Assembly: GCA_964550175.1 (NCBI GenBank)
Contig: CAZJXP010000001.1
Span: 706,774 to 770,773 of the forward strand
Direction of reading: 5' to 3'
Origin: an uncultured Methanosarcinales archaeon
GTDB taxonomy: Archaea; Nanobdellota; Nanobdellia; Woesearchaeales; ARS49
Length of the DNA: 64,000 bases
Numbering within the stretch: the first letter of the stretch is position 1; each line of letters begins with the position of its first letter. The translations under genes and the position numbers were made by a program. Under the pieces are notes generated by a model. The model saw only the letters and a program-made list of their open reading frames with translations, was not told the DNA's origin and did no database searches. Below are positions 3,384 through 60,872 of the stretch, piece after piece.

Positions 3384-3947
3384 GTGAAAGAGGTCTTGGT
3401 CAAGAAGGGACGCATCCGCGCGAAGATTAACGTGCCGGGCGTCGCGCTTGACATAAACGTCGCGCATTCTGCTGCTAGTTTGCGGGAAGTGCGACGGATT
3501 CTTGACACTCTTCGGCAGCAGGACGTTATTGTTGAGCAGGACCCGTACAACTGGCAGTTTTCTGAAGAGTTAAGGTCATCCCCCGCGGCGATGGATTTTA
3601 TTAGACAGGCGTCGCGCGCGGAGCAGGGGACGCTCTACCGCAAATTATCGTTTGACAATCTCCGTGTCGTCGACACGTACAAGAAAGAGTTTTTTTCAAC
3701 GCTGGACCCGGTGAAAACCAAAGAGGCAATCAAAACGCAACTGTCTGATGTCGATGGCGACGTCAGATTCGGGCTTGTGCACATCATCGGCACGGTGTCG
3801 AAAGATGACAAAGCGTTGCTTGTTGATTTGGTGCGCAAACGATTCGGCAACGCCGAGCTGAAGACGCAGTTCACGCACAAAGACGTGTTAGGTAAGACGG
3901 TAGTTGAGATGGTGCTGTTCGGGTCGCTGCAGAGAGATGAGTTCTAG
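3384..3947 (+). CDS. hypothetical protein
   Basis: Long ORF. Probable GTG start about 25 nt after the TATA-like 'aattatttaaatc'. No recognisable motifs. Confidence 0.4.
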   Translation: MKEVLVKKGRIRAKINVPGVALDINVAHSAASLREVRRILDTLRQQDVIVEQDPYNWQFSEELRSSPAAMDFIRQASRAEQGTLYRKLSFDNLRVVDTYKKEFFSTLDPVKTKEAIKTQLSDVDGDVRFGLVHIIGTVSKDDKALLVDLVRKRFGNAELKTQFTHKDVLGKTVVEMVLFGSLQRDEF

Positions 3948-3955
3948 CAGAGTTA

Positions 3956-4056
3956 CCTTTTTACCGCCCCGATTCGAACCGTTGGCTCAATTGAATTCAA
4001 AATTATTGCCGTACGCTACGACAAAAAGAGCCGGTAAAAAGTTTGGGCGGTAAAGA
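3956..4056. repeat. MITE-like interspersed repeat, copy A (TIR 'ctttttaccgccc' ... 'gggcggtaaagag')
   Basis: Shares a head and tail with copies at 6604, 10403, 16304, 20829, 30807 and 61137. Confidence 0.55.
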
Positions 4057-4067
4057 GCTTAACGACG

Positions 4068-5774
4068 TTAACGTTGTATTTCTTTCAAGAACTTCTTTGT
4101 CGGCAACGTGTTCACCACGTCCTTCGCCTCCAACCAGCCTCTCCGTGCCTGCGCGACGCCGAGCTCCATGAATCGCAGATGGTCGACGCTGTGGCTGTCG
4201 GTGTTGATGATGAATTTTGATTTGAGCGCTTTCGCGGCCCTGATGTGCGTGTCTTTCAAATCCAATCGGCTGGGCGAACTGTTGATTTCAAGGAAAACTC
4301 CCGTATCGGCGCAGGCCTGCGCGACAGATTCGAAATCGAAATCAATGGGCTCGCGCGCGTTTATCAGCCGACCGGTCGGGTGGCTTATCGCCGTTATATT
4401 TCCCGACTGGATGGCCTTGAGGTAGCGCTGCGTGGCTGCGGCGCGGTCTGGCGTGAAGCGCTGATGCGAACTAGCCATAACTATGTCGAGCTGCTTCAAG
4501 ATTGCTGGCTTGTAGTCGAGACTGCCGTCCTTTTTGATGTCCACTTCGCTACCTTTGAGGATGGTGACGTCAGAATACTTTTTTTGCAGCTTGTCAATCT
4601 CTTCGCAGTGCTTGAGCAGCCGTTTTTCGTCCAGTCCGTTGGCGATGACTGAGCTTTTGCTGTGGTCGGTGATCGCGAGATAGTCATAGCCTTGCTTGAT
4701 TGCGGCTTGCACCATCTCTTCCGTCGTGTTGTTCCCGTCGCTCCAGCGCGTGTGCATGTGGCAGTCGCCCCGCATCGCGTCGTACGGAATCAGGGTCGGA
4801 AGCTTCTTTGCTTCTATTTCGCCCGTGTTCTCGCGAATTTCGGGCGCGGGATACGGAAGATTGAGCTTCTTGTAGATGTCCTTTTCAGTCTTGCCCGCGA
4901 CATACGTTCCTTTGCGGGTGAACAGCCCGTATTCGTTGAGCTTGAACCCCTTGTCGATCGCGATCTGTCGCACGCGGACGTTGTGCTCCTTGCTGCCGGT
5001 GAAGTATTGCATCGCCGCGCCGAACGATTTCGGCTCGAGCACGCGAACGTCGGCCTGCAGGTTGCCGATGAGGATGGCTGATTTTGTCGGGCCTTTCGCC
5101 AGGACTCTCGTGACGTCAGACATCGTCGTGAAGAAGTCCATGACTCTTGAGGGGTTCTTGCTAGTGACTAAGATGTCGATGTCCGCGATGGTCTCCTTTC
5201 TTCGTCGGACGCTGCCGGCGACTTCGGCGCGGTCGACGCCCTGAATGGTTTGCAGTCGTGCTTGGAGCTCGCGCGCTATGTCAAGCCCGGTGACGAGCAA
5301 TTTTCTTTCCTGGCCTTGCGCGTGCAGGCTCAATCCCTTCAGAATCTCCTGCTCGCTCTTCTCGCCGAAACCTGCGAGCTTTCGTATTTTGCCTGACTCT
5401 GCGGCCTTCTGCAAGTCGCGCAAGCTTTTGATGTTCAGTTTTTTGTTGAGAATGACTGCCCGTTTCGGTCCGAGACCGGGGATGTGCATCATCTCGTCGA
5501 CCCCTTTCGGAATGCGCTTTTCTAACTCTTTTAGCTCCTTGATTTTGCCGGTTGTCAGGAACTCCTCGGTCTTGTTCGCTATCGCTTCGCCTACGCCCGG
5601 AAGCTCCTTCAGCGCGGCCATGCCGCCTTTTGCGTAGATGTCCTCGATGGGCTTGCTCAAGGTTTCGATTGTTCTCGCGGCTTTACGAAAGGCGTTCGGC
5701 TTCCATTGCACGGCGAGAATTTCGAGCAGGTCGGCGATTTCGTAGAAGATGTCAGCTAGTTCTTGGTTCTTCAT
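4068..5774 (-). CDS. polX: DNA polymerase X family with C-terminal PHP phosphoesterase domain
   Basis: N-terminal HhH 'GIGEAIANKTEEF'; pol-beta palm; PHP motifs 'GDCHMHTRWSDG', 'AITDH', 'SHPTG', 'NTDSH'. Confidence 0.9.
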   Translation of the reverse strand: MKNQELADIFYEIADLLEILAVQWKPNAFRKAARTIETLSKPIEDIYAKGGMAALKELPGVGEAIANKTEEFLTTGKIKELKELEKRIPKGVDEMMHIPGLGPKRAVILNKKLNIKSLRDLQKAAESGKIRKLAGFGEKSEQEILKGLSLHAQGQERKLLVTGLDIARELQARLQTIQGVDRAEVAGSVRRRKETIADIDILVTSKNPSRVMDFFTTMSDVTRVLAKGPTKSAILIGNLQADVRVLEPKSFGAAMQYFTGSKEHNVRVRQIAIDKGFKLNEYGLFTRKGTYVAGKTEKDIYKKLNLPYPAPEIRENTGEIEAKKLPTLIPYDAMRGDCHMHTRWSDGNNTTEEMVQAAIKQGYDYLAITDHSKSSVIANGLDEKRLLKHCEEIDKLQKKYSDVTILKGSEVDIKKDGSLDYKPAILKQLDIVMASSHQRFTPDRAAATQRYLKAIQSGNITAISHPTGRLINAREPIDFDFESVAQACADTGVFLEINSSPSRLDLKDTHIRAAKALKSKFIINTDSHSVDHLRFMELGVAQARRGWLEAKDVVNTLPTKKFLKEIQR

Positions 5775-6223
5775 TGCTCGACCTTCACCTTTTCAACGAT
5801 TGTGAATTCGATGGGACGCCCGTGCGTGTCATATGCAGCAACACGGTTGAACGTGTACGGCCGGCAGATGATGAGGTTGACAAGGCCCATCGTAAACAGC
5901 CCTCGCTTGTCCATGCTGCTAGGCAGGTTGTTGAAGCTCGGATGGCTGTGGACGGTCCCTACTACTTCGTGCAGCAATGGAAGGTCGGCGCTGATGATTG
6001 CCTGGCTCTCGTTCGCGTGGTAGTGCTCGTAGACGATGCCCTTAACGTAGAGAATCTTGTTCGTGACCTTTCCTTGTAGGTAGGCCGAGAACTCGTTCGG
6101 ATGGGCGTTCTTCGCGAACTCGATGACGGTCTGGATGACTTGGCGTTCGACGAAGACCGAATGGAAGACATACTCCTCAAGCCCCGAGGCTCGGAGAGTC
6201 CAACGCATCAGCTTCTTCCACAT
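5771..6223 (-). CDS. JAB/MPN (JAMM) metalloprotease, RadC-like
   Basis: JAMM motif 'HSHPSFNNLPSSMD' (HxHx7Sx2D); 4-nt overlap with polX. Confidence 0.75.
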   Translation of the reverse strand: MWKKLMRWTLRASGLEEYVFHSVFVERQVIQTVIEFAKNAHPNEFSAYLQGKVTNKILYVKGIVYEHYHANESQAIISADLPLLHEVVGTVHSHPSFNNLPSSMDKRGLFTMGLVNLIICRPYTFNRVAAYDTHGRPIEFTIVEKVKVEQ

Positions 6224-6348
6224 GCTATTGTTATCGGTGGTTGAGGTTAAAGAGCTTTTCGTCTTGTGAAAGTCAGTTTTCGGATTTTTTACTTGGGACT
6301 TTCACAAGACGGGCAAAGTTTAAATAGCGTTGGTGATGGGATGAGCGC

Positions 6349-6570
6349 ATGGGATGCACCGCATGCAACGCGCCGTTGGCGCCGAACGACAAGTTCTGCG
6401 CAGCCTGCGGCGCGGTCCAGCAAAATGCCGCTCAGGTTTCTGAGATTATCGAGGATAGCGCTGACAACCAGGTCACGACCACGTGCGACAGATGCGGCGC
6501 GGGCTTGGTTTCGGGACAGATATTCTGCACCGTGTGCGGCAAACCTTCAGTTCAACTCGGCGAAGAGTGA
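6349..6570 (+). CDS. double zinc-ribbon protein
   Basis: 'CTACNAP...CAACG' and 'CDRCGAG...CTVCG'; TATA 'gtttaaatagc' about 25 nt upstream. Confidence 0.5.
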   Translation: MGCTACNAPLAPNDKFCAACGAVQQNAAQVSEIIEDSADNQVTTTCDRCGAGLVSGQIFCTVCGKPSVQLGEE

Positions 6571-6603
6571 GTTTGTAGTAGTCTTGGTTTCCTTGCCGTT
6601 CTT

Positions 6604-6687
6604 TTCCCAGGCAGATTTTGAGTAGTTTAGGCAATAATTCTATTTTGAATAGAGCCAACGGTTCTAATCTGGGCGGTAAAAAGTTTG
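6604..6687. repeat. MITE-like repeat, copy B (inverted orientation)
   Basis: Starts 'cagattttgagtag' and ends 'gggcggtaaaaag'. Confidence 0.55.
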
Positions 6688-6767
6688 CTTGGGAGAGCTT
6701 ACGTCGACAAAAACTATTGGCATTCATCACCATAATCCTTAAAAACACCTGCCACTCTGGAATAGTC

Positions 6768-7184
6768 ATGGACGAACGTCGACAACAGCTCAGGCGCGAT
6801 ATGGACTCCTACCTTTCGCAGCGGCGAAAGTCGGACTGGGGATTCTTTTCGAAGCCTGTTCTGCACCCGACGGTCCATCCTTACAAGAATAAGGAAATGA
6901 AGGAGGAATCGACCGTGGAATCATCCGAATCAACCGAACAAAAGAAAGGCTGGCTTTCCGGCATGGTCGACAAGCTCTTCGGCGAAGCGGCCGATGAAGA
7001 CGTTCCGGCAGAAGCGGTTTCTCAGGTTACTTCCACTGATGCGTCTGCTGACTTGAAGGAATTGGCGCGAATCTCGCTCGCGGTGATGAAGAAGATGCCG
7101 GGCGACCTCGTGCACGAGTTCAAGCAGTCCGCCGATTACGACCGATTCAAGGAACTTCTCCGCAAGCACCAACTCATCAAATGA
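6768..7184 (+). CDS. hypothetical protein
   Basis: The ORF-track start at 6618 lies inside repeat B, so the first Met after the repeat is used. The stop overlaps the next start (ATGA). Confidence 0.4.
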   Translation: MDERRQQLRRDMDSYLSQRRKSDWGFFSKPVLHPTVHPYKNKEMKEESTVESSESTEQKKGWLSGMVDKLFGEAADEDVPAEAVSQVTSTDASADLKELARISLAVMKKMPGDLVHEFKQSADYDRFKELLRKHQLIK

Positions 7185-7387
7185 GACTATTCGCTCTTTT
7201 CTGTCTGCTTTTGGTTCTTGCCGCGTGTTCGACGCCTTCTGAAAAGCCGGTTGCCGGCGGCGAGCAGGCGCCGAGCTGCATGTGCACGGCAAATTACGCT
7301 CCTGTGTGCGGCTCAGACGGGAAGACGTACAGCAACTCTTGCTTCGCGAATTGCGTGAAAGTAACTTTTGTCGAAGGCGAGTGCTAG
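7181..7387 (+). CDS. lipoprotein with Kazal-type serine-protease-inhibitor domain
   Basis: Lipobox 'LVLAAC'; Kazal signature 'C-MC-x7-PVCGSDGKTYSNSCFANC-x9-C' with six Cys. Confidence 0.65.
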   Translation: MRLFALFCLLLVLAACSTPSEKPVAGGEQAPSCMCTANYAPVCGSDGKTYSNSCFANCVKVTFVEGEC

Positions 7388-8259
7388 TTTCTCCAGAGAA
7401 GAAGCGCGTCGTTGCTTAAGCTGAATTTGTTTCCGTCCGTTGTCAACGTCAACGTCCCTTTCTCGTCCGTGCGGTAGACGTTGTTGTCCGTTTGGGCGTT
7501 CAAGCGCGTCATTACTTCCTGTCCCGGATGGCCGTATTGGTTGTTCAGGCCGACGCTGATCAATGCGACGGACGGGTTGATGGCGCTCACGAATTCTGCC
7601 GTGCTTGAGGTCTTGCTGCCGTGGTGGCCCGCGACGTAGACGTCGCTTTCTAATTGCGCGCCGTATTGGTTGATGACGGCGTGCTCGCACGCGCTTTCGC
7701 AGTCGCCTGGTAGTAGGATGCTTGTGTTTTTGTACGTGATTTTTAGGACGATGCTGTTGTCGTTATCGCCGTTGAATGCCAATGGTGTGTCTGGGTTGAG
7801 AACGTCAATCTGCGCCCCGCCGACGAGGAAAGACTGTCCGTCGTGCCAGTCCAAAAGAACGCTGCCTTCTATTTCGGCTTTCGTGTTCAATGAGGCGCAC
7901 GTTTTCGTGTCGCAGGGGACCTTCGGCTGCAGGTAATTCTTGATTTTAACCGTGTCAAAGGCCTTGATTAATCCGGCGGCATGATCTGAGTCGAGATTGC
8001 TGATCATTGCGTAGTCTATCGTCGTTATGCTGTAGTTCTCGAGGTAGCTGACGAGCCGGGTTCCGCTCTTGCCGGCGTCGTACAGCAGGGTTTCGTTGTC
8101 GGGCAGCTTGATGAGAATGGCCTGCCCTTGGCCGACGTCGAGCATCATGAGGGTCAGGATGCCTTCGGGGAAGGCTATTTTAGCGGGTTGGGGGTCGTTT
8201 ATGACGTTTCCCGTGACACAGCCGGCCAAAAGGAGGGCTAAAACGAGCTGCAGTTTCAT
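7384..8259 (-). CDS. MBL-fold metallo-hydrolase lipoprotein (ComEC C-terminal-domain-like)
   Basis: Lipobox 'LLAGC'; 'DVGQGQAILI', 'HxxxD' and 'AGHHGS' beta-lactamase-fold motifs. Confidence 0.7.
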   Translation of the reverse strand: MKLQLVLALLLAGCVTGNVINDPQPAKIAFPEGILTLMMLDVGQGQAILIKLPDNETLLYDAGKSGTRLVSYLENYSITTIDYAMISNLDSDHAAGLIKAFDTVKIKNYLQPKVPCDTKTCASLNTKAEIEGSVLLDWHDGQSFLVGGAQIDVLNPDTPLAFNGDNDNSIVLKITYKNTSILLPGDCESACEHAVINQYGAQLESDVYVAGHHGSKTSSTAEFVSAINPSVALISVGLNNQYGHPGQEVMTRLNAQTDNNVYRTDEKGTLTLTTDGNKFSLSNDALLLWRN

Positions 8260-26472: not shown

Positions 26473-27624
26473 ATGGGGGAGTTCGTAAAAAACAAATATG
26501 GCGTGCTACCGCGCCAGGAACTTCTCGACGCATTTGATTGCGGAATGCTCAGTTCTGAAACGGATCCAAAATCATATATGCAGCCCGCGAGCGTCGACAT
26601 TCCGCTCGGCGAACGAGTCATTCGTTTAAAATCATCGTTTTTGCCCGATAATAAGATAGGGTCCGTTGAGGCAACCATTAAAAAATTGAGTCGTGATGAA
26701 TTTTCTTTAAATGAGCTTGTTCCCAAAGCGTTAGTTCGCGGACAAACCTATCTTGCCGAATTGGATATGGAAGCTAACTTACAGAAAAATTATTCTGGCA
26801 CGCTTAATCCAAAAAGCACAACCGGACGAGCGGACTGTCTCACGCGGGTTATTGTCGACGGCGTGCGCAATTATGATACGGTGTCGGAAGGAAAGGGGCG
26901 AAAATTCTGGCTTGAAATCACTCCCTTGAGCTGGGACGTGAAAGTGACCAAAGGCCTCGCACTTAATCAGTTGCGATTATCCTACGGCGAAAATCCGCTT
27001 GATGAAGGAGCATTAGTCATGGCATACATGAAGACTCCGTTGCTTATCGACCCGGAAGGACAGACCATACCCATTGAAAAAGCGTGCTTCAAGCGAGGCG
27101 GGCTGGAAATGACCGTTGACCTCGATGCGGATATTGTAGGGTATAAAGCGAAAAGAAATTCGCTCCTCGAGTTCAATCTTAGCGCGGAAAAAGGGACGCT
27201 TGCGGAACAACAAAACAAGTTCTTTGAGCCGATTGAGCGCCCGAAAGATGGCGAGCTGGTTCTTGAACCCGATACGTTCTACCTGCTCGGCACGCGTGAA
27301 AAAGCGGTGATTCCCGAGGGTCTTTGCGGCACATTGCGGGCGTACGATCCGGCATCGGCCGAAGGACGCGTTCATTACGCCGGTTTCTTCGATCCGGGCT
27401 TTTGCGCGCACGCAACATTGGAAGTCAGACTCAATCATTTACCGTTCTTGATCAAGGATGGACAGCCCATCTGCGTCTTGCAGTACGAACGCATGAAGGA
27501 CATTCCCCGCGACGAGAACGGCGAACCAAAGCTCTATGTGGGGAATTACCAGGACCAGCCGAGAGGACCTAACTTGCCGAAACAGTTCGGCGTGCGGAAA
27601 GTAGAAGCGGGAAGTTTGAGGTGA
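26473..27624 (+). CDS. dcd: dCTP deaminase-like protein, long form (dUTPase fold)
   Basis: 'LGTREKAVIPEGLCGTLRAYDPASAEGRVHYAGFFDPGF' dUTPase/dCTP-deaminase beta-barrel motif. 383 aa. Confidence 0.65.
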   Translation: MGEFVKNKYGVLPRQELLDAFDCGMLSSETDPKSYMQPASVDIPLGERVIRLKSSFLPDNKIGSVEATIKKLSRDEFSLNELVPKALVRGQTYLAELDMEANLQKNYSGTLNPKSTTGRADCLTRVIVDGVRNYDTVSEGKGRKFWLEITPLSWDVKVTKGLALNQLRLSYGENPLDEGALVMAYMKTPLLIDPEGQTIPIEKACFKRGGLEMTVDLDADIVGYKAKRNSLLEFNLSAEKGTLAEQQNKFFEPIERPKDGELVLEPDTFYLLGTREKAVIPEGLCGTLRAYDPASAEGRVHYAGFFDPGFCAHATLEVRLNHLPFLIKDGQPICVLQYERMKDIPRDENGEPKLYVGNYQDQPRGPNLPKQFGVRKVEAGSLR

Positions 27625-29336
27625 ACAGGATGACAGGAACACTAGCCCCATTAGTCAAGCACAGAGAATATTCTGAGCCTGAAAAGGTTGTGCTGAATCA
27701 TTTTTTCACTAACACGGACAAAAACATCTATTGCCCAACCGAGCATATGCCCTCTCCTGTCTGGACATTCCTTGTCGGCCAATACAGCAGAACGCCAGTT
27801 TCAATGCGCGAGCGCTTCATCGACATCTTTGACATGATGAAATCGCGCTCGGAGAAAGGAGATTGGCCAAAGAATGAAACCGTGACCGTCGAGCAGGCTG
27901 CCGACGCCATCGGCGCAGGCAAGCACGTTCCGCTCTCGTTCTTTTTTAAGACCGCGGAGAATTTCCTCGCGAAATGGGGCGTGCAGTACGGCCACAACTC
28001 GCTCAAGGACGCAGATATCGTGCGTGTCGCAATTGAAGGAGTGACGCAGACAGCGACTAACTTCATTGAGATGCCTGACCCTGAATTGGGCGCATACCAG
28101 GAAAAATCAACCAGATACATTCCATTCAGCAAGGATGACGTTGTCATTCCGCCGAGATTGGCGAACTCCCATTTTGGTCAGCGCATCAAGGCGTTGAATG
28201 ACCAGCGTATGGAAACTTATGAGCGTTGGACGCCGATATTCAGGCAATGGCTCGCGGAAAACGTGGTGCTGCGAAAGGATCACAAGACTGATGCCGCGCA
28301 CAACGGCACGCTCACCGCGCGCACGTTCGACACGATGCGATACTTCCTTCCGTTGGGGCTGACGACGTCGCTTGGCGCAACATGGCCGACCAGAGTCGCG
28401 GAAATACACCTCTCTCAGATGCTCAGCCATCCGACGGAAGAGATGCAGCTTATTGGCAAAAGCATCCTTGAAGAAGGCGTCAAGATTACGCCAGGTCTTC
28501 TACGCCATGTTAAGCCGAACGAATATTTCGGGGAAACGACGGCATCTATGAGTGAGTTGACGAGAAGCATTATAGATGCACAGCCCACCAAATATCATCG
28601 TGGCGACAGCACACTCAAGCATGCGACACTCGTCCATGCAACGCCAGGACTTGAAGACTTGCTGATTACCGGCATGCTTTATGAGTTTACGGCCAACCGT
28701 TCGTTCGCAGAACTGCAGGGCACGATTAAGGGGTTCAGCGATGCGCAGAAAGACGCCATCTTTGATGAATATCTCCGTCGACGCGGACCTCACGACCTGA
28801 TGATGCGTGGCGTAAAGCTCGGCCAGTTCACATTTGATTATTTCATTGACCACGGTGCGGCGCGGGATGTAAAACGTCAGCGCGTAGGTACGATGCTACA
28901 CCAACGTATCGGCGCGGATGAAGGGTATTCTTACCCTGAGTTCATGGAGCACGAACCTGACCTTGCTCAACTGAAAGCAGATTATGAAAAGCTGATGGAG
29001 ACCACAAGCGAACTTTACCGCGAAGTCGATCGGGATTTCCCGAATGATTCCTGCTATATTCCATCGATGGGACACCTCGGGCGCTGGCTTCATGAACATC
29101 ATGCAAGGCAAGGATCTTATGAGATCGAGCTCAGAACCCCGAGCGCCGGTCACTTTTCGTATCGACGCCTTTACCAAGAGGAATTCCGAGAAATTGAAAA
29201 AATCGCGCCGCGGTTCGCAAAATACATCCGCGCAGTGATGGGCCAAACGTCCAGCGGACGAGCGGAAGCAGAAGAGCGTGCCGCAGCGAAAGCGGCTAAG
29301 GCACTGGAAGAAGACCGAAAGAGGGCCGCACAATGA
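27621..29336 (+). CDS. hypothetical 571-aa protein in the thymidylate-synthase position of the operon (at best a very divergent ThyX-like)
   Basis: 4-nt overlaps with dcd upstream and tmk downstream. Only weak ThyX-like fragments ('YQEKSTRY'; 'TSLGATWPTRVAEIHLSQ'). The canonical RHR is absent. No ThyA 'PCH'. Confidence 0.5.
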   Translation: MNRMTGTLAPLVKHREYSEPEKVVLNHFFTNTDKNIYCPTEHMPSPVWTFLVGQYSRTPVSMRERFIDIFDMMKSRSEKGDWPKNETVTVEQAADAIGAGKHVPLSFFFKTAENFLAKWGVQYGHNSLKDADIVRVAIEGVTQTATNFIEMPDPELGAYQEKSTRYIPFSKDDVVIPPRLANSHFGQRIKALNDQRMETYERWTPIFRQWLAENVVLRKDHKTDAAHNGTLTARTFDTMRYFLPLGLTTSLGATWPTRVAEIHLSQMLSHPTEEMQLIGKSILEEGVKITPGLLRHVKPNEYFGETTASMSELTRSIIDAQPTKYHRGDSTLKHATLVHATPGLEDLLITGMLYEFTANRSFAELQGTIKGFSDAQKDAIFDEYLRRRGPHDLMMRGVKLGQFTFDYFIDHGAARDVKRQRVGTMLHQRIGADEGYSYPEFMEHEPDLAQLKADYEKLMETTSELYREVDRDFPNDSCYIPSMGHLGRWLHEHHARQGSYEIELRTPSAGHFSYRRLYQEEFREIEKIAPRFAKYIRAVMGQTSSGRAEAEERAAAKAAKALEEDRKRAAQ

Positions 29337-30911: not shown

Positions 30912-32771
30912 TTACTTTTTCTCGTACACAAACGCCCCATCCCAGTCCTTGGCTGGCGGATGCTTCAAGTAGAGTTCGCAGCGTTCGATGAACAACGCGC
31001 AGGACGGGTCGTTCGGTCGGATCTTTGCAGTTTCTTTGAATCCCTTGAGCGCGTCGTGGAACTTTGCCTTGAAATACAGCTCCAACGCCTTTTCGAACGA
31101 CGTGACGAACGCTTGGTCCTGGTCGACGCATAAATGATAGAGTAAAACAGGAACCTTTTTTCCCTTCACTTTCACGGCGTCGAGCTTGCGGCATAAATAT
31201 TTGCCTTTGATGTGCTCGTACGTGCTTTCCGAGATGAGGATGCTGACGCCGTACTCTTTGGTGAGCCCTTCCATGCGCGAGGCAAGGTTGACCGTGTCGC
31301 CGATGGCCGTATAGTCAAACCGTTCTTCCGAGCCCATGTTACCGACTACGGCCGGGCCGGTGTGGATGCCGATGCCGATGTTCAACGACGGGACGTTGCG
31401 CTGCTTCCAATTGGCTTGCAATTCGCGAAGCGCTTTGATTTGCTCGACGGCTGTGTCACAGGCCTTCACCGCGTGGGCATCATCAAGTAAGGGGGCGTTC
31501 CACAACGCCATGATGGCGTCCCCGATGAACTTGTCAACAGTTCCTTGGTGCTTGAGCACGATGCGCGTCATCGTGGTGAGATATTCATTCAAGAGATGGA
31601 CCAATTCTTCCGGCGAGAGCTTTTCGCTGATGCTGGTGAAGTCGCGTATGTCCGAGAACATGACCGTGAGGATTCTTTTTTCGCCACCGAGCGTCAACTG
31701 CTGGTTTTTTGAAAGTATTTCATCCAACAGTTCTTTGCTCACATATTTCGAGAACGCGTCGCGCAAATACGCCCCTTTCGTTTTTTCCTCTGTGTACGCC
31801 ACGCTCACGCCTGCGCCGGTGAAGACGGCGAACGCCAACGGGGCGAAAAACAGGTCGATAAGGAGGTTGAACTGGTTGAACGAGATGATGGCGACAATTG
31901 CGTAAACGACAAGCAACCCGATTGCCAACGGGATGGCGTAATAATACTTCAGGCGCGCGATGAGAAACATGCCAGCAAGCGCGGCGAGGATGACGCCGAG
32001 CATTACAATCAGTTTGTCCGGCGCGCGCAAGAAATCATTGTTGATGATGTTTTGGAGTATGTTTGCGTGAATCTCGACGCCGGGCATAGCTTTTCCGTCC
32101 GACGTCGGCACAAAATAGTCGTCGTGCAAGTTCGGGGCCGTCGCGCCGATCAGGACAATCTTGTTCGCGAAACTGAGATTTTTTGCGAGCACGTCGTTGA
32201 CGCTGACGGTTTTGAACGAATGAGGGGCATCCGCGAAGTTGATGAGCAACGTTTCTTTTTCGGTCGGAGTGGCGTAACCAGCCTGTTCCGCGATGGCGAA
32301 TGAGAACGGCTTCATATCATTCGCGATGCTCGGGTTTACTCGGCGCGTTATCCCGTCAGCGTCCCCGAGAAGGTTCACATAGCCCGTGATTGACGGGAAT
32401 ATCGGCAAATACGTCACTCCTTGCTGGATTTCGGACGCTAACACGACGTTATCCATCGACTGTAACGTCGTATTCAAGAGAACATCATTCGGGCTCGGCT
32501 CAAAAAAAGAAACATCAATGCCGATTACTTTCGCGTCATTCAGTTTCTCGAGAAGATTCGCGTGGACGTCGCGGCTCCAAGGCCAGTGGCCGATTGAGTT
32601 GATGCTCGCGTCATCGATTGCGACGATGACGATGCTGTCAAGAACCGCGTTACCGCCGTACAGCTTGTCCGTGAGCGTGCCCCGCACGTGGCTGAACGAA
32701 TCAACCTGCACGAGCAGCAGCGCAAGCGCGAGCAGCCCGAGGAAAATCCCTAGCTTGCCAACTTTAGCCAT
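30912..32771 (-). CDS. CHASE2 sensor – class III adenylyl cyclase – TPR protein
   Basis: Signal/TM + periplasmic CHASE2 + 3 TM; cyclase motifs 'FSDIRDFT', 'DKFIGDAIMALW', 'IGIHTGPAVVGNMG', 'NLASRME'; C-terminal TPR-like helices. Confidence 0.85.
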   Translation of the reverse strand: MAKVGKLGIFLGLLALALLLVQVDSFSHVRGTLTDKLYGGNAVLDSIVIVAIDDASINSIGHWPWSRDVHANLLEKLNDAKVIGIDVSFFEPSPNDVLLNTTLQSMDNVVLASEIQQGVTYLPIFPSITGYVNLLGDADGITRRVNPSIANDMKPFSFAIAEQAGYATPTEKETLLINFADAPHSFKTVSVNDVLAKNLSFANKIVLIGATAPNLHDDYFVPTSDGKAMPGVEIHANILQNIINNDFLRAPDKLIVMLGVILAALAGMFLIARLKYYYAIPLAIGLLVVYAIVAIISFNQFNLLIDLFFAPLAFAVFTGAGVSVAYTEEKTKGAYLRDAFSKYVSKELLDEILSKNQQLTLGGEKRILTVMFSDIRDFTSISEKLSPEELVHLLNEYLTTMTRIVLKHQGTVDKFIGDAIMALWNAPLLDDAHAVKACDTAVEQIKALRELQANWKQRNVPSLNIGIGIHTGPAVVGNMGSEERFDYTAIGDTVNLASRMEGLTKEYGVSILISESTYEHIKGKYLCRKLDAVKVKGKKVPVLLYHLCVDQDQAFVTSFEKALELYFKAKFHDALKGFKETAKIRPNDPSCALFIERCELYLKHPPAKDWDGAFVYEKK

Positions 32772-42530: not shown

Positions 42531-44426
42531 TTATAAAGTTTTTGCCGGGGCTTCTGCGGGTTTGGGAGTGAAGAACTGCTTAATTATAGGGAGCGGATTG
42601 AGCGCGATTCTCGGATTCCAGTCAGTAGGGAAGCATTTGCTATACATCGGCTGAGCGTAGCGCTCGTCCAAGAAGACCAACACTCCTCTATCGGTCTCGG
42701 AACGGATGCATCTGCCGGCGTTCTGCAACGTCTTCGTGATTGCGGGAAGGACATAGCCATAATCCCAGCCCTTGTGAAACTTCTTATCATAATAATTGAT
42801 GAGCTCCTTCGTCTCGAGATCGGGTCTATCAAGAGGAATGCCGACCACGATTACGCATTTCAACACGCCCGGCAGGTCGACCCCTTCCCCGAACGAGCCG
42901 GCGGCGACGCCTAACAAAACCGCGCCAATCTGCTTGTACTGCGAAAATCGCTCCAGCAAGCCTTGACGGTCCTCTTTGCTCGCTTTGGAATCTTCGGTGA
43001 ACACGGTTTTTTTGCACGCCGTGTTGAAATAGTTCGCGACGCTGTCGCGCAGCGCGTAGCTCGGAAAGAAAATAGCGGAACAGCCGGGAATCTCGTTCAC
43101 GATGTCGGCGCATTGCTTTGCGATGTTTTGGTACTGTTGTTCCGAACGCGACGCGAACTTCGTCGTGCCATTAGGAAGTATCAAACAGCACTTGTTGATG
43201 GACGGAAACGGACTCGGAAACTCTTTTTGGACGGTTGTTTTCGGAAACCCGAGCAAGTCCGCGAACATTGCAGTAGGGGTTAACGTTCCCGACATCAAGA
43301 TAGTTGTGTGCGCCTTCGCGATGACGTCGCGCGACAACAATGACGGGTCCATGCAGCGGTGCGAAAGAATGATCGATTTCTCGTTGCGGAAATCCTTGAC
43401 TGAAACGGTGCGGCTGAAGCCGGCATCTCCGGACGTCCAGCCCTTCATAAAAGCAGCCACTCCGCCGATGGCGCTCGCTTCCTCAAGTGCGCGGATGTCC
43501 TCGGCAGCTGAGTCAAGATCTTCCATGAGCTCGTCAATATCCTTGATTTTCTTGATTTCGTTGACGAACGTCTCTTTCGTCACGAGTTTTTCCTGGTCGC
43601 GATACAATCCGGTCGCGAGCTTCTGCAACACGGCTTGCATCTCAACAAGATAATCGTGCTCCTTGTCGTGGCCGTGCTTTTTCGCCTCGTTTATCGCGCG
43701 CCGGAGCATCGTCGTCGTGAGACGCTGCGTCATTTCGTCCCGCAAACGGTCGGGAAGGTTGTGCCCCTCATCGATAATGAGGATTGCCTTTTCCAGCTGC
43801 TTGTTTATTTTCGCCATGAATCCGTCGCGGATCCGGGCGTTGAACAAATAATTGTAGTCCGTGATGATGACCTTCGAGTCTTTCGCTAAGAGCAACGAAA
43901 GTTCGTACGGACACATCTCCTGCGTCATGCCAAAGTCGAGCACGCGCTCACTCGTGCACGGGCTTTCGCGCTTCAGCTGCACGGTCGCGAGGTCGGCCTC
44001 CATCGTCGCGAACCCCTTGTCATTCCGAGTGTTGAGATAGTTCGAGCATTTGCCTTCTTCCTTCATCGACTTGCAATAATGCGCAAAGTCGTCCGAGCGC
44101 ATCAACGCCGCGCCGGGCTGGGCGCACAGATGGCGCTTGCCAACGACGGAAACGGTTCCGAGATTCACGTCGAATTTATTTTTGATTGCGGTCAATGTTT
44201 GTAATGCAATCAAGTGCTGCGTTTGTCGTGAGGTGAGGAAAAATACTGTGAGATCTTTTTCTTTTACGGCAGTTAACGCCGGGGCGATTGTCGCCGCTGT
44301 TTTTCCCAGCCCCGTCGGAGCGTGCACAATCAGCGGCGTTTTCGTCTCGATTGCCTTTTTCACGCACTCGATGAGCTCGTTTTGGACCTTGCGCATCGTT
44401 TCGTGCGGAAAAAGCAGCGGAAGCAT
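42531..44426 (-). CDS. xpd: XPD/Rad3-family 5'-3' DNA helicase
   Basis: 'APTGLGKT', four-Cys FeS domain, 'DEGHNL', helicase C motifs. Confidence 0.9.
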   Translation of the reverse strand: MLPLLFPHETMRKVQNELIECVKKAIETKTPLIVHAPTGLGKTAATIAPALTAVKEKDLTVFFLTSRQTQHLIALQTLTAIKNKFDVNLGTVSVVGKRHLCAQPGAALMRSDDFAHYCKSMKEEGKCSNYLNTRNDKGFATMEADLATVQLKRESPCTSERVLDFGMTQEMCPYELSLLLAKDSKVIITDYNYLFNARIRDGFMAKINKQLEKAILIIDEGHNLPDRLRDEMTQRLTTTMLRRAINEAKKHGHDKEHDYLVEMQAVLQKLATGLYRDQEKLVTKETFVNEIKKIKDIDELMEDLDSAAEDIRALEEASAIGGVAAFMKGWTSGDAGFSRTVSVKDFRNEKSIILSHRCMDPSLLSRDVIAKAHTTILMSGTLTPTAMFADLLGFPKTTVQKEFPSPFPSINKCCLILPNGTTKFASRSEQQYQNIAKQCADIVNEIPGCSAIFFPSYALRDSVANYFNTACKKTVFTEDSKASKEDRQGLLERFSQYKQIGAVLLGVAAGSFGEGVDLPGVLKCVIVVGIPLDRPDLETKELINYYDKKFHKGWDYGYVLPAITKTLQNAGRCIRSETDRGVLVFLDERYAQPMYSKCFPTDWNPRIALNPLPIIKQFFTPKPAEAPAKTL

Positions 44427-56022: not shown

Positions 56023-57357
56023 ATGACCGAATCTGAGCACCGCATCGACGCGACGTCGAAAGACTCCCAGCACGGCGTAGATGCCCGACTCGAGAATGAG
56101 ATTCGAAAGCACGCGCTCAACGCGCTTCTCTACATCAACCAGCGCGCGAGCCTAACGACCGAAACCATTGATGGAAAGACCGTTGAACTCAGCCCGCTTG
56201 AATCGGCTTGCAGAGCTATTGCCTTGTCCGTTTCTGATGTGTTCTCCCATACCAAAAATTCGGAGGGCACCATCGATTGCGCCGTGAGCATTGCGCCGAA
56301 ATCCGATCCGAAGCAAGCGCGCGTCTACGCGATCAAGGAATCGGACGACGAACATTGGAAAGACCTCAACGGCGTGCACCATCGACAGGGAGCATCCAAC
56401 TTCGCAACCTACGAGATTCCCCTCGGCGCGGACGCGACGAACACCGCGCTGATTTACATCTGCGCACCGCTGAGCCAAGTTGACGATTATGTCCAATTCC
56501 GATTCTTGCAGGAAATAAAGCCCCATTTAGCGACGACCTTGAAGGTGGCGAACGGCCGCACCAAGGAACTTGACGCTAACCGAAACTTGACGAAGAAATT
56601 CGTGCGCAGCCATCTCGGCAAGAACTATGAGCTCGCCGAAATTTCAATCCTTCCGCCGTATTTCAAGAAAAGCTCGGGGTTGCAGCTGTTGGGAAAAGTC
56701 ATCCAGAAGATGCACAAGTCAAACGAACCGTTGAGCGTCATGATACTTGACTTCGACAATTTCCATGATTATAACGGTGCCTATGGCCACGGTCAAGGAG
56801 ATGTTGCGCTCACACATCTGGGACGGGAAATCTACAAAAATATCGATCATACCCATCCGCACGACATCAAAAGCATCTACGATTATTTGCTCGCCTCTTC
56901 GTGCCCGGGCGACTCGGCAAACCACGAGCCCGACGCGGAAAAGCACTTTAAAGCGTGCGAAGAATGGAAGAACCAAATTGTCGAGAACCTCGCGCACAAG
57001 ACTCCAGGCGACTTCCTCATCAGATACGGCGGCGAAGAGCTCGTCGCGGTTCTTGTCGGAGCAACTCCTCAACAGGCAGAAAGCGCGGCCAAGCGAGTGC
57101 AGCAGCACATCAACGACTTAGTGATTCCCGCGCCGATGAACAGCAAAGCCCAGAGGCTCTACGGCCCGAAGCAGCTGCCCGTCAGCAAAGTCACCGTTTC
57201 CATCGGGGTCAGCGGCATGCTGCCCGATTCGATGATATCAGGTAAAGAGCTCATTGAAGAGGCGGACGGCGCGCTGTACGCGGCGAAAGACGCGGGCAGA
57301 AACCGCGTCATGCTGTACGATCCTGCGACGATGAAACCGCACGTTACCCAAGAGTAA
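56023..57357 (+). CDS. GGDEF-domain nucleotide cyclase (GGEEL variant) with N-terminal sensor-like domain
   Basis: 'MILDFDNFHDYNGAYGHGQGDVAL', 'RYGGEELVAVL', 'VTVSIGVS', 'EADGALYAAKDAGRNRV'. Confidence 0.8.
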   Translation: MTESEHRIDATSKDSQHGVDARLENEIRKHALNALLYINQRASLTTETIDGKTVELSPLESACRAIALSVSDVFSHTKNSEGTIDCAVSIAPKSDPKQARVYAIKESDDEHWKDLNGVHHRQGASNFATYEIPLGADATNTALIYICAPLSQVDDYVQFRFLQEIKPHLATTLKVANGRTKELDANRNLTKKFVRSHLGKNYELAEISILPPYFKKSSGLQLLGKVIQKMHKSNEPLSVMILDFDNFHDYNGAYGHGQGDVALTHLGREIYKNIDHTHPHDIKSIYDYLLASSCPGDSANHEPDAEKHFKACEEWKNQIVENLAHKTPGDFLIRYGGEELVAVLVGATPQQAESAAKRVQQHINDLVIPAPMNSKAQRLYGPKQLPVSKVTVSIGVSGMLPDSMISGKELIEEADGALYAAKDAGRNRVMLYDPATMKPHVTQE

Positions 57358-57418: not shown

Positions 57419-57976
57419 ATGAAAACATACTCCGAACTCAAAGAAGACAGCCTGCCCACGATTAAAGAGTACACTCCTGAATTGCTGGTTTCTCGCATTC
57501 AGGACGCCGTTGCTTCGCATCCTGAACAGCCTCGTTTGGCAATGCTGGCGGACATCGACGCCTTCAAGTGCTATTTCGACGAATACGGCCCTGAACAGCG
57601 ACTTATCGTGCTCGGCAACGTCAATGACTATTTCAGTCATTTGAAGAAAAAACACGAAATTTCATTAATTGACCGCATGAAGATCGACCAATTTTTCCTG
57701 CTCGCGCCGATGAAAGACGGGCTGGCAGAGCGAATCCGACAGGACATCGACCAAATGCGCTTTCCGAAGCACGATCTGAACTCGACAGAGGTCCCGCTTG
57801 AGGACGGAAGAACAATATCGCCGAACCACGTGACGGTCCACATCGGCCAGATCGGATTCATCCCGAACCAGTCGCTCGACTACAGAACGATGCTCTTCCG
57901 ATTACATGAGCTCACGCGTGGCATCGGCGCGGACAAGACGCTTAGAAAAGACTGGAACGAGTATTCAGTGCTTTAA
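57419..57976 (+). CDS. degenerate GGDEF-like domain protein
   Basis: 'MLADIDAFKCYFDEYGPEQRL' and 'VTVHIGQIG' are conserved, but the GGDEF motif is replaced by 'DRMKIDQFFLL'. Confidence 0.5.
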   Translation: MKTYSELKEDSLPTIKEYTPELLVSRIQDAVASHPEQPRLAMLADIDAFKCYFDEYGPEQRLIVLGNVNDYFSHLKKKHEISLIDRMKIDQFFLLAPMKDGLAERIRQDIDQMRFPKHDLNSTEVPLEDGRTISPNHVTVHIGQIGFIPNQSLDYRTMLFRLHELTRGIGADKTLRKDWNEYSVL

Positions 57977-59481
57977 TTGTGCTCTCCCGTCTGCTTCTTC
58001 ACGTTTAACGCGACGGCTTTTCCGAGAATGTCGGTGAGCTTTTCAATGGATGCTTTTCTGACGTCGCCCAAATCCTTGATGCCTGATTTGAACATTGTCC
58101 TTGCGCGGATGCGACCGATGCCTTCGAGCTTCAAAAGCGGCAACAATTCTTCCTTCGCGCCGTACTTCAATCTTGTTCGCGCGCGGTTTATCTCTTTGAT
58201 AATGGGGTTGAGGCCGAGGATGTTCGCCAGTTCCTTCATGCCGTACAGCAGCCAGTCCGCGTTGTCCTTCTTGACGTGCAGCTCGCCGGGACGCACATTG
58301 AACTGATCCAGGAGCGCCTGCTCGTCATCCTCCTCCATCCAGGCATTGAGCATCATCGTCGTCTTCACGGCGTTGAGGTAATCGTCGTATTCGGCCTCGA
58401 ACGCGCTCGGCTCGTCGACAAGCAGTTCAGGCTGCCATTCGACTAACTTAGCCTGCACTGGAGCGTAGTCTTTCGTTCCCACGTTGAGCAACGGCCGCAT
58501 CTCGAGCGTCGTGCACAACGTATGGATGAACGCAATCACATTCGTTGTTTTAGCCTTGATTGCCTTTCTCAATGCGGTTACGAGCTCGTGCGCGGTCAAC
58601 GGGTCGAGATACAGTTCAGCGACGCGCTTACCCAACACGGTTGCGTTGAACGCGACGTCTTTTTCCAGCTCGTCCGCCGAGACGAAATCGTCTGCTTTCT
58701 TTGACGGCAGGATGAATTCCCATTCTTCCAGCATCGCGAGCATGCGGTCAATGATGTGCTCGAGCTTTTCTAAATCTTTGAATTGGAATGCCCAGAACGT
58801 CTTGCTGAAGAACGTCATCAATTCTTTTCTTGTATGCACGAATCGTGACGCGATGAGCGAGAGAATGTAGGTTCTTAACACGGGCTCGACCGCGAGCTTC
58901 GAGTAGATGTCTTCCGGCACGCCGTTGATGTAGCGCACGGTAAGCTCGTCCTTGTCGAATTGCGAGCTCGCGACGCAGATGGCCTCGCCGACATTTTCGA
59001 ACTTCGGACGGCCGGCGCGGCCAGCAATCTGCAGATATTCCAGCACGGGAATGAACCCCATCCCGCGCTGGCTGTAGCGTTTCAGGTCTCGGATGATGCA
59101 GCGAAACGCCGGAAGGTCGACGCCCATTGCCAACGTCGGCGTGCATGCGATGAAGCTTATCGTCCCGTTGCGGAAGTTGTCCTCGATGAGCGTCTTTTGC
59201 GTGCCATGCAAGCCTGCGTGGTGGAACGCGACGCCTTGTTCGACGCAACGGGCGAGGCGCTCGCATTGGACTGTTGGTCGAGGGAGAGCGTGGAGCAATT
59301 TTTCCGAAAGCTCTTTCAGCGCGGGTGAGGAATGCTTGATTTTTTTCCCGATGTCCTCAGCGACCTTTTCGGCGCTGCGCTTGGCGTTGACGAACACCAA
59401 TGCCTGCTTCTTTTTTTCCAGCGTGTCGAGACAGAGATTGATGACACCATCAGACGTCTTTTCAGGGATTTTAACTAACAT
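57973..59481 (-). CDS. Hel308/Ski2-like helicase lacking the N-terminal RecA1 (DEAH) domain
   Basis: Motifs IV-VI present ('LVFVNAKR', 'TPTLAMGVDLPA', 'QIAGRAGRP') + WH + ratchet + HLH. Walker A/DEAH absent. Only 53 bp of AT-rich DNA upstream. Confidence 0.75.
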   Translation of the reverse strand: MLVKIPEKTSDGVINLCLDTLEKKKQALVFVNAKRSAEKVAEDIGKKIKHSSPALKELSEKLLHALPRPTVQCERLARCVEQGVAFHHAGLHGTQKTLIEDNFRNGTISFIACTPTLAMGVDLPAFRCIIRDLKRYSQRGMGFIPVLEYLQIAGRAGRPKFENVGEAICVASSQFDKDELTVRYINGVPEDIYSKLAVEPVLRTYILSLIASRFVHTRKELMTFFSKTFWAFQFKDLEKLEHIIDRMLAMLEEWEFILPSKKADDFVSADELEKDVAFNATVLGKRVAELYLDPLTAHELVTALRKAIKAKTTNVIAFIHTLCTTLEMRPLLNVGTKDYAPVQAKLVEWQPELLVDEPSAFEAEYDDYLNAVKTTMMLNAWMEEDDEQALLDQFNVRPGELHVKKDNADWLLYGMKELANILGLNPIIKEINRARTRLKYGAKEELLPLLKLEGIGRIRARTMFKSGIKDLGDVRKASIEKLTDILGKAVALNVKKQTGEHN

Positions 59482-59534
59482 AATGAAATAAGAAAAGAAG
59501 AGATATAAGAATTATGCCCAATTTGGGAGGGTAA

Positions 59535-59936
59535 TCATGCGCAGCTTTTGGTGCAGTCGCGCTTGCATTCGCTTCGGAAGACGATTTCGCATTCTTTCGT
59601 GGCTTCCGTGTTGCACGAGGCTTTGCAGCCTTCCGGTCGAAGGAAGGTTCCGCAGTTCTCCACGCAATCATAATAGTTCGTGCCTTGGCCGCAGACTTTG
59701 TTTGAGTTCATTGCGCAGGCATCGGTGCAGTCAGGAACGCACGTTTCAGAGGTGATTGGGGTTTCAGAAGCCGACGGAGTTGTGGGCGTTGGAGTCGTGA
59801 CTAGGGGGGTTTCTGGCGCGGGAGCAGTCGGAGTCTCAGGGGGAACCGTCATCGGCGTTTCGACAACGGGCGGAGTTGTTGGCTGGCAGGCTGCCAAAAT
59901 AATTGAAAGCAGTCCGACAATCAGGATTTTTTTCAT
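59535..59936 (-). CDS. Cys-rich lipoprotein
   Basis: Lipobox 'ILAAC'; Pro/Thr linker; 16 Cys in the C-terminal 70 aa. Confidence 0.55.
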   Translation of the reverse strand: MKKILIVGLLSIILAACQPTTPPVVETPMTVPPETPTAPAPETPLVTTPTPTTPSASETPITSETCVPDCTDACAMNSNKVCGQGTNYYDCVENCGTFLRPEGCKASCNTEATKECEIVFRSECKRDCTKSCA

Positions 59937-59945
59937 ACATTCACC

Positions 59946-60872
59946 TCAACAGGTCACGGCGCAGGCGGCTTTACAGGCCACCAAATCATCGCTGCACGTT
60001 GATGTGCAGCGTGGAACAAGATAGTCTTGGCATTCATCGATCGTGCCTTCTTGGCAGCCGTCGCGGCAGTATACCGGGTGCATGAACACGTTGCATGCAT
60101 CTCGGCAGAAGTCCTCATCTTCGGCTTCGCAGCCCGCGGTCACGGCGTCCTCGCAACCAGCGCCGCAATCATCATCGGCCGTGTCGCAGGCATCGGAGCA
60201 ATCGTCAATGCAGCTTTCGCGCGAGGTGTTGAGCTGCAGTACGGTGAACAGTTCGTCAGATGAACGCACAACCGTATCTGCAAGCGTTGTGAACGTGACT
60301 GTTCTGTTCATAATTTCGACTCCATCCCAGACTTCCGCCTTGAGCGACGGCGTGATGTAGGCGCTTTCACCGACAAGCCTGACGGTGCCGGGCAAAATCG
60401 TGAGCAGCACGCCCGTCGGGTGCGTTTCAACGAGCTTCAGCGTTATTGGCAACGTGATTGTGCCATAAGGAATTTCGCCGTCATATTCGACGTTATCTTT
60501 CGTCGCTTCGGCATCCAATTTGAATCGCATCTGCGTGAATTCCTGCGGCGGCATCTGGACATCGATCACCAATTGCGGGTTCTCGTTCGCGACGATGTCC
60601 ACGCTCACCTTTTCTGAGCTGAGCTTTTTCCAGCTGTCTTTTGTCTTGTCGTACAGCTCGATTTCGCCAACTTTGAGCTTGAACACGTCAAAGCCTTCAA
60701 CTGTCCCGGTCGTCGCGACGACGAACTGCGCGAGCTTTTCTTCGACTTCAACGGGCTCGGGAGTCGTGTTCGTGACGTTCGGAATCACAGGAGATTCAAC
60801 CGGGACTTTCGAGGAGCAGGCGACTAACAAGAATACGATTAACAACAACCACTTTTTTTGCATAGCATTCAA
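59946..60872 (-). CDS. Cys-rich lipoprotein (paralogous C-terminal domain)
   Basis: Lipobox 'LLVAC'; beta-rich middle; C-terminal 'CxDDCSDACD...CRDGCQEG...C' cluster. Confidence 0.55.
   Translation of the reverse strand: MNAMQKKWLLLIVFLLVACSSKVPVESPVIPNVTNTTPEPVEVEEKLAQFVVATTGTVEGFDVFKLKVGEIELYDKTKDSWKKLSSEKVSVDIVANENPQLVIDVQMPPQEFTQMRFKLDAEATKDNVEYDGEIPYGTITLPITLKLVETHPTGVLLTILPGTVRLVGESAYITPSLKAEVWDGVEIMNRTVTFTTLADTVVRSSDELFTVLQLNTSRESCIDDCSDACDTADDDCGAGCEDAVTAGCEAEDEDFCRDACNVFMHPVYCRDGCQEGTIDECQDYLVPRCTSTCSDDLVACKAACAVTC

Follow-up and report, generated by a model that had tools for sequence, protein, structure and literature searches.

A Hel308-type helicase gene lacking the first RecA domain, and a complementary family of RecA1-only genes in Woesearchaeota and Nanoarchaeota

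We analysed a stretch of 64,000 nucleotides (hereafter the window) of contig CAZJXP010000001.1 from assembly GCA_964550175.1, an uncultured archaeon that GTDB places in the Woesearchaeales, and found that the open reading frame (ORF) at 57973..59481 on its minus strand encodes domains 2 to 5 of a Hel308/Hjm helicase and no first RecA domain (RecA1). A separate family of RecA1-only proteins, conserved in the same clade, covers the part of Hel308 that this protein lacks, and genes for both halves occur at separate, non-adjacent loci in two metagenome-assembled genomes (MAGs) of relatives. We consider it highly probable that the window gene encodes one subunit of a clade-wide two-gene Hel308 whose heterodimer is assembled non-covalently; that the halves physically assemble and are active together is what we infer from their sequences.

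The C-terminal half and its family

The ORF begins with an ATG and specifies 502 amino acids (aa). When the protein was compared with the PDB by phmmer, residues 16-490 aligned with residues 229-689 of the 720-residue Hjm of Pyrococcus furiosus (2zj2; E 1.3e-93), residues 10-494 with residues 238-703 of the Hel308 of Sulfolobus solfataricus (2va8), and residues 26-494 with residues 244-678 of the Hel308 of Archaeoglobus fulgidus (2p6r). The protein covers Hel308/Hjm from residue ~214/229 through the C-terminal end. Its parts are given below, with invariance referring to 55 C-terminal halves (C-halves), namely the window protein and 54 relatives that include its ten closest.

57973..59481, minus strand: gene for the C-terminal subunit of a putative split Hel308/Hjm helicase, with RecA2, winged helix, ratchet and helix-hairpin-helix (HhH) domains (domain, PDB and structure matches)
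58927..59481, minus strand: RecA2 motor domain, aa 1-185, with motifs IV, IVa, V and VI (PDB alignment, conservation, AlphaFold2 (AF2) model)
59389..59409, minus strand: motif IV, KQALVFV, with Q26 and F30 invariant
59209..59232, minus strand: motif IVa, VAFHHAGL, with F86, H87, H88 and G90 invariant
59107..59145, minus strand: motif V, CTPTLAMGVDLPA, with T114, P115, L117, A118, G120, P124 and A125 invariant
59005..59031, minus strand: motif VI, QIAGRAGRP, with the arginine fingers R155 and R158; Q151, G154, R155, A156, G157, R158 and P159 invariant
58711..58941, minus strand: winged-helix domain 3, aa 181-257 (Pfam HTH_61)
58159..58533, minus strand: ratchet domain 4, aa 317-441 (Pfam Helicase_dom4_arc, E 1.3e-29)
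57997..58140, minus strand: HhH domain 5, aa 448-495 (Pfam HHH_5, slightly under the cut-off)

Within RecA2, Pfam places Helicase_C at aa 81-159; it reports no DEAD/ResIII domain in the protein, and RecA1 with its motifs Q, I, Ia, II and III is absent from the polypeptide. The order of winged-helix domain 3, ratchet domain 4 and HhH domain 5 is that of Hel308. An AF2 model, built from an alignment of 55 relatives, had a mean pLDDT of 88.1, and its top structural matches were Hjm/Hel308 (2zj8, 2p6r, 2va8) with TMq values of 0.70-0.73 over ~490 columns. The initial annotation of this DNA had described a protein that starts in RecA2 with motifs IV, V and VI intact and that has no Walker A or DEAH domain, and the motif positions, the Pfam result and the PDB alignments, which start at Hjm residue ~229, bear out both statements. 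Its winged helix and ratchet were likewise recovered by Pfam, but what it called a helix-loop-helix is the helix-hairpin-helix domain 5 of Hel308. The structure prediction that it proposed for comparison with Hel308 domains 2-5 returned the Hel308 fold.

The window protein belongs to a family of such headless proteins. Its 120 best database homologues, from Woesearchaeota/Nanoarchaeota MAGs, are all 484-572 aa long and all without a DEAD domain, and the junction alignment places the start of the listed headless homologues at the same position as that of the window protein. In a set of representatives clustered at 50% identity, those nearest to the window protein are headless (47-57% identity), and the nearest full-length Hel308 reaches just 49%.

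In superfamily 2 (SF2) helicases, the RecA2 motif residues are needed only for ATP binding and hydrolysis jointly with RecA1, and we know of no role for motifs IV, V and VI and both arginine fingers without a RecA1 domain. The invariance of these RecA2 residues across the 55 C-halves therefore argues for a working composite ATP site, and the sequences of the two families indicate that purifying selection acts on both of its halves. Inteins point the same way: the headless relative P0122 (1040 aa) carries one within motif V (TPTL/C...HN/S, insertion borders marked by slashes), and motif V inteins occur in headless and full-length Hel308 relatives alike, the other such representatives being ~950-1250 aa long. 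This insertion site is typical of functional ATPase motifs, and we count the fact that some headless genes still bear an intein there in favour of a functional motif.

The RecA1-only family and the pairing of the halves

Using the first 223 residues of P0141, the closest full-length protein, as query, we found nearly all of the 120 best matches to be DEAD-only proteins 219-231 aa in length, most of them sharing 59-65% identity with the query; one of them, P0271, has 274 aa and 46% identity. Those with names are 'DEAD/DEAH box helicase' proteins of Woesearchaeota/Nanoarchaeota. A repeat search from one of these N-terminal halves (N-halves), P0387, gave the same picture among its best 120 matches, and there are no full-length proteins in the best-120 lists for the C-half and the N-half. 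P0387 aligns to Hjm residues 21-214 (E 3.6e-64). In 40 diverse N-halves, the Q motif, CTPTASGKT (motif I), VPLxALA (Ia), DE[IV]H (II), LSAT (III) and WRPV are invariant, and the AF2 model of the N-half (pLDDT 88.7) has a RecA1 fold with a terminal beta-hairpin at residues 210-219, just past WRPV.

A scan of GTDB with the N-half alignment, limited to one genome per species, returned at least 600 stretches, of which 596 were confirmed and the best 80 were analysed. All 80 loci lie in Woesearchaeota/Nanoarchaeia MAGs, and in 78 of them the N-half ORF is 208-225 aa long (243 and 284 aa in the two exceptions). The N-half gene is found in conserved synteny with ftsY, prefoldin and prs. Many GTDB MAGs with a Woesearchaeota-type N-half (for example L028, L033, L036, L040 and L041) bear the title 'uncultured Methanosarcinales archaeon', and one that of 'Aminicenantes bacterium'; mislabelling or contamination of the bins is the probable cause. 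Beside one N-half locus, L005, lies a gene (3617..7582) for a phosphoenolpyruvate-utilising enzyme resembling pyruvate phosphate dikinase (1321 aa) that contains a LAGLIDADG intein.

In the junction alignment the end of the N-half falls near Hjm residue 217 and the start of the C-half near residue 214, the two abutting without overlap, and 221 plus 502 aa come close to the 720 aa of Hjm. Because the ends abut and the lengths add up in this way, the two families are, as judged from their sequences, exact complements.

The same junction bears on whether the halves might be joined covalently by split-intein protein trans-splicing, as in the DNA polymerase of Nanoarchaeum equitans. Nanoarchaeota use a split intein elsewhere, and inteins are present in the Hel308 family itself, in P0122 and the large representatives. 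The N-halves, however, end at ~220 aa right after a hairpin that is homologous to Hel308, which leaves no room for an N-terminal intein part (IntN), and the C-halves are homologous to Hel308 from residue 1-10 with no C-terminal part (IntC). The lengths moreover sum to those of a normal Hel308, and the known intein sits in motif V and not at the junction, so that we regard trans-splicing as very improbable.

Both halves were found in one genome, at separate loci, in two relatives: MAG YT1_182 carries the N-half on JAHWIK010000011 and the C-half on JAHWIK010000015, and MAG MEGAHIT-group-1.1032 carries them on JBDRAZ010000017 and JBDRAZ010000068, respectively. These are two matches out of five C-half look-ups that returned an NCBI assembly, the look-ups having been chosen with co-occurrence in mind and the N-half list used for the comparison representing at most 13% of N-half genomes. 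The C-halves P0102, P0111 and P0112 come from MAGs outside the 80 N-half loci and are uninformative here, and P0052 is available as a Logan contig only. Two matches in five fit a general co-occurrence of the halves. In the 80 genomes the 10 kb around the N-half are free of C-half genes, and the C-halves examined with full flanks have no DEAD gene at a distance of 10 kb or less. P0365 and P0104, whose similar contig counts had suggested a common organism, do not share one, as the former and the latter differ in habitat, one being of groundwater and the other of marine origin.

Several observations weigh against a two-subunit Hel308 in the lineage of the window, or against a simple history of it. 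The N-half is absent from the 64-kb window, where tblastn with 42 N-termini gave a best E value of 0.18 and a regular-expression search for Walker A/DExH over six frames yielded no N-half; the sole other SF2 helicase there is an XPD-like gene (42531..44426), and FtsY, prefoldin and Prs, the usual N-half neighbours, are missing there as well. The C terminus sets the lineage somewhat apart: a PIP-box-like KRKGQxSLxx[YF], possibly a PCNA-binding tail, closes 37 of the 55 C-halves, whereas the window protein and those most closely related to it stop ~20 aa earlier and are without it. The window protein ends 7 aa after the HhH domain (tail region 57973..57996). In a rough neighbour-joining tree, 42 of 49 headless representatives fall on one side, but eight full-length proteins are nested inside the mainly headless clade, which argues against a single clean split; we read the tree as mostly one old event whose history is not clean. 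Five GC-rich metagenome contigs (L102, L129, L141, L154 and L156) carry CTPTASGKT within a contiguous full-length Hel308 whose N part is ~48% and whose C part is ~38-43% identical, and these proteins could serve as outgroups for dating the split.

Because N-halves do occur on GC-rich contigs of similar composition, the lineage may nevertheless keep a partner. A GC-biased DNA pattern for motif I, searched on JGI metagenomes, retrieved N-half ORFs on such contigs, although it had no match in Ga0534153, the metagenome of the closest relative. One of these N-half contigs, L120, has a tetranucleotide correlation of r 0.94 with L002, which comes from the closest well-assembled relative (C-half 69% identical), and of 0.75 with the window, and two others, L121 and L128, correlate with the window at 0.73 and 0.71. 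This suggests, at the level of sequence composition, that the source lineage keeps an N-half partner; the presence of the gene in the source genome itself is something we infer and do not claim as proven. Contig L049 (JACQNA01, 52% GC) was considered as part of the same MAG as the window and rejected, its tetranucleotide correlation being <0.4 compared with 0.92-0.96 within the window.

These observations also bear on a reading in which the window protein, at least in this lineage, is an ATPase-less stand-alone paralog, a clamp-like or regulatory DNA-binding factor that uses its winged-helix, ratchet and HhH domains and has no RecA1 partner. The absence of an N-half from the 64-kb window of the source genome, the loss of the PIP-like tail in the subclade and the confident in silico fold of the C-half alone would be compatible with such a factor. 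Against it stand the invariance of motifs IV, V and VI and of the arginine fingers in the window protein and its 54 relatives, ten of them members of the subclade, the abundance in the phylum of a complementary RecA1-only family that co-occurs with the C-half, and the N-halves on compositionally similar GC-rich contigs. We therefore hold the stand-alone reading to be decidedly unlikely. The initial annotation had left a choice between a split helicase and an ATPase-less paralog; the complementary family, the co-occurrence in the same MAG and the invariant motifs strongly support the split helicase at the family level and disfavour the paralog.

Upstream DNA, promoter and neighbouring genes

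A normal hel308 reduced to a headless one by an assembly break, a frameshift or a 5′ truncation, that is, an artefact or a pseudogene, would have nothing in its favour beyond the missing domain itself. An in-frame stop lies 11 codons 5′ of the helicase ATG, and only 53 bp of intergenic DNA separate this ATG from the stop codon of an intact and unrelated upstream ORF (59535..59936, minus strand), which encodes a Cys-rich lipoprotein-like protein of 133 aa. No RecA1 remnant or other helicase-like sequence is present in the three frames 5′ of the helicase ORF. The independent Logan assembly SRR13076528 has the identical gene order around the C-half, more than 100 orthologues share the start residue, and the ORF is intact with conserved motifs and its own TATA-like box. 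An artefact is, in our judgement, practically out of the question. Of the two findings that the initial annotation named as refuting its reading, an in-frame upstream extension and an adjacent N-half, neither was seen, and its account of 53 bp of promoter-like DNA followed by an unrelated lipoprotein gene matches the TATA-like box and the 133-aa ORF.

The upstream DNA and the genes around the helicase are as follows.

59482..59534, minus strand: probable own promoter region of the helicase gene, judged from sequence
56023..57357, plus strand: GGDEF diguanylate-cyclase domain protein, 444 aa (Pfam E 1e-25, motif GGEEL)
57419..57976, plus strand: degenerate GGDEF-like ORF, 185 aa (E 2e-4), ending in a 4-bp overlap with the helicase stop
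59535..59936 and 59946..60872, minus strand: two consecutive lipobox-type Cys-rich secreted proteins without a Pfam match
27621..29336, plus strand: 571-aa ORF with a ThyX (Thy1) domain at residues 110-291 only (window protein scan)
30912..32771, minus strand: CHASE2 sensor fused to an adenylate/guanylate cyclase domain (window protein scan)

The TATA-like box, TTATAT, is at 59503-59508, 22-27 nt before the helicase ATG, a spacing typical of archaeal leaderless transcripts, and its position implies that the helicase gene is probably read as a leaderless mRNA. In most loci of the relatives, N-halves and C-halves alike, TATA-like boxes or B recognition elements (BRE) lie 22-33 nt 5′ of the ATG. 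A perfect 11-nt palindrome, CCCAAATTGGG, occupies 59516-59526, past the stop codon of the lipoprotein-like gene and ahead of the TATA-like box of the helicase gene, and could be a terminator or an operator.

In the relative's contig L002, the same lipobox pair precedes the C-half, the larger member carrying DUF4382, and a ligase gene directly follows the C-half. Because the ligase is directly adjacent there, the two GGDEF genes look like an insertion in the window lineage. A GGDEF gene also lies beside the C-half in another Woesearchaeote (L099); to our knowledge, cyclic-di-GMP signalling is hardly known in archaea. The ORF with the ThyX domain is, at 571 aa, unusually long for ThyX.

Proposed mechanism and relation to known systems

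We propose that in Woesearchaeota/Nanoarchaeota an ancestral hel308 was broken in the loop after the short beta-hairpin that follows the WRPV linker. A gene of ~220 codons elsewhere in the genome would then supply RecA1 (Q motif, Walker A, Ia, DE[IV]H and SAT) with the hairpin, and the window gene would supply the larger subunit with RecA2 (motifs IV-VI and arginine fingers), winged helix, ratchet and HhH. A TATA-box promoter of its own may drive each half as a leaderless transcript, and non-covalent association of the two products would create the ATP site at the RecA1/RecA2 interface. Judging by where the chain is broken, the probable docking site for the N-half hairpin is RecA2 or else the N-terminal strand of the other subunit. 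The winged helix, ratchet and HhH domains would handle DNA as in the Hel308-DNA structures, and the complex would act as an ordinary 3′-5′ Hel308 in fork restart and repair. It is also conceivable, but unlikely, that the split, more than a by-product of genome erosion, is a regulatory design, with a freely exchangeable or separately regulated RecA1 module and an activity switched by association; the C-half without a PIP-like tail might then bind DNA independently of ATP, alone or with another partner.

If the halves assemble, they would form a natural, clade-conserved SF2 helicase whose ATP site is built in trans from the products of two unlinked genes, and direct tests of RecA1-RecA2 coupling and of the ratchet would become possible. 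The split-gene trait of Nanoarchaeota, known from a few hyperthermophile genomes, would then also take in a core repair helicase in hundreds of mesophilic DPANN genomes. Because annotation pipelines label the halves 'helicase-related protein' and 'DEAD/DEAH box helicase', surveys of Hel308 distribution in archaea and checks for frameshifts or pseudogenes will misread these genomes. We found no description of a split Hel308 in the literature searched, the surveys of archaeal Ski2-like and Lhr helicases being silent on it, and no paper among those searched that joins Hel308 with Woesearchaeota; a split Hel308 is predictable in kind for DPANN and undescribed in this instance.

Compared with the characterised Hel308/Hjm enzymes (2zj2, 2p6r, 2va8), the window protein has domains 2-5 in the same order, 33-37% identity and all RecA2 motifs, and the separate N-half matches domain 1; the characterised enzymes, however, are single chains of ~690-720 aa, whereas here two unlinked genes are involved. 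The RecA2-winged helix-ratchet architecture is shared, with weaker matches in sequence and structure searches, by the helicase-like domain of Pol theta, Brr2 and ASCC3, but these are larger proteins with ~20% identity in which RecA1 is always fused. Inteins interrupt other SF2 helicases as well, as in aLhr2, where they occur in RecA1 or RecA2 (PMC8301817). The motif V intein of Hel308 family members resembles these, but the aLhr2 proteins are spliced to one chain, whereas the Hel308 break is without intein parts and leaves two chains.

The nearest parallel in kind is found in Nanoarchaeota (N. equitans and Nst1), where split genes include those for reverse gyrase, a 'large helicase-related protein' (NEQ003-409), RNA polymerase B and others (PMC3655853 Table 1; PMC6349945). 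As in the present case, unlinked half-genes of the same phylum-level group make up one conserved protein, and one of the examples is an SF2 helicase. Hel308, in contrast, is not named in those lists, where NEQ003/409 could be either Lhr or Hel308, and the Hel308 split is conserved in hundreds of Woesearchaeota/Nanoarchaeia genomes instead of one or two reduced hyperthermophiles.

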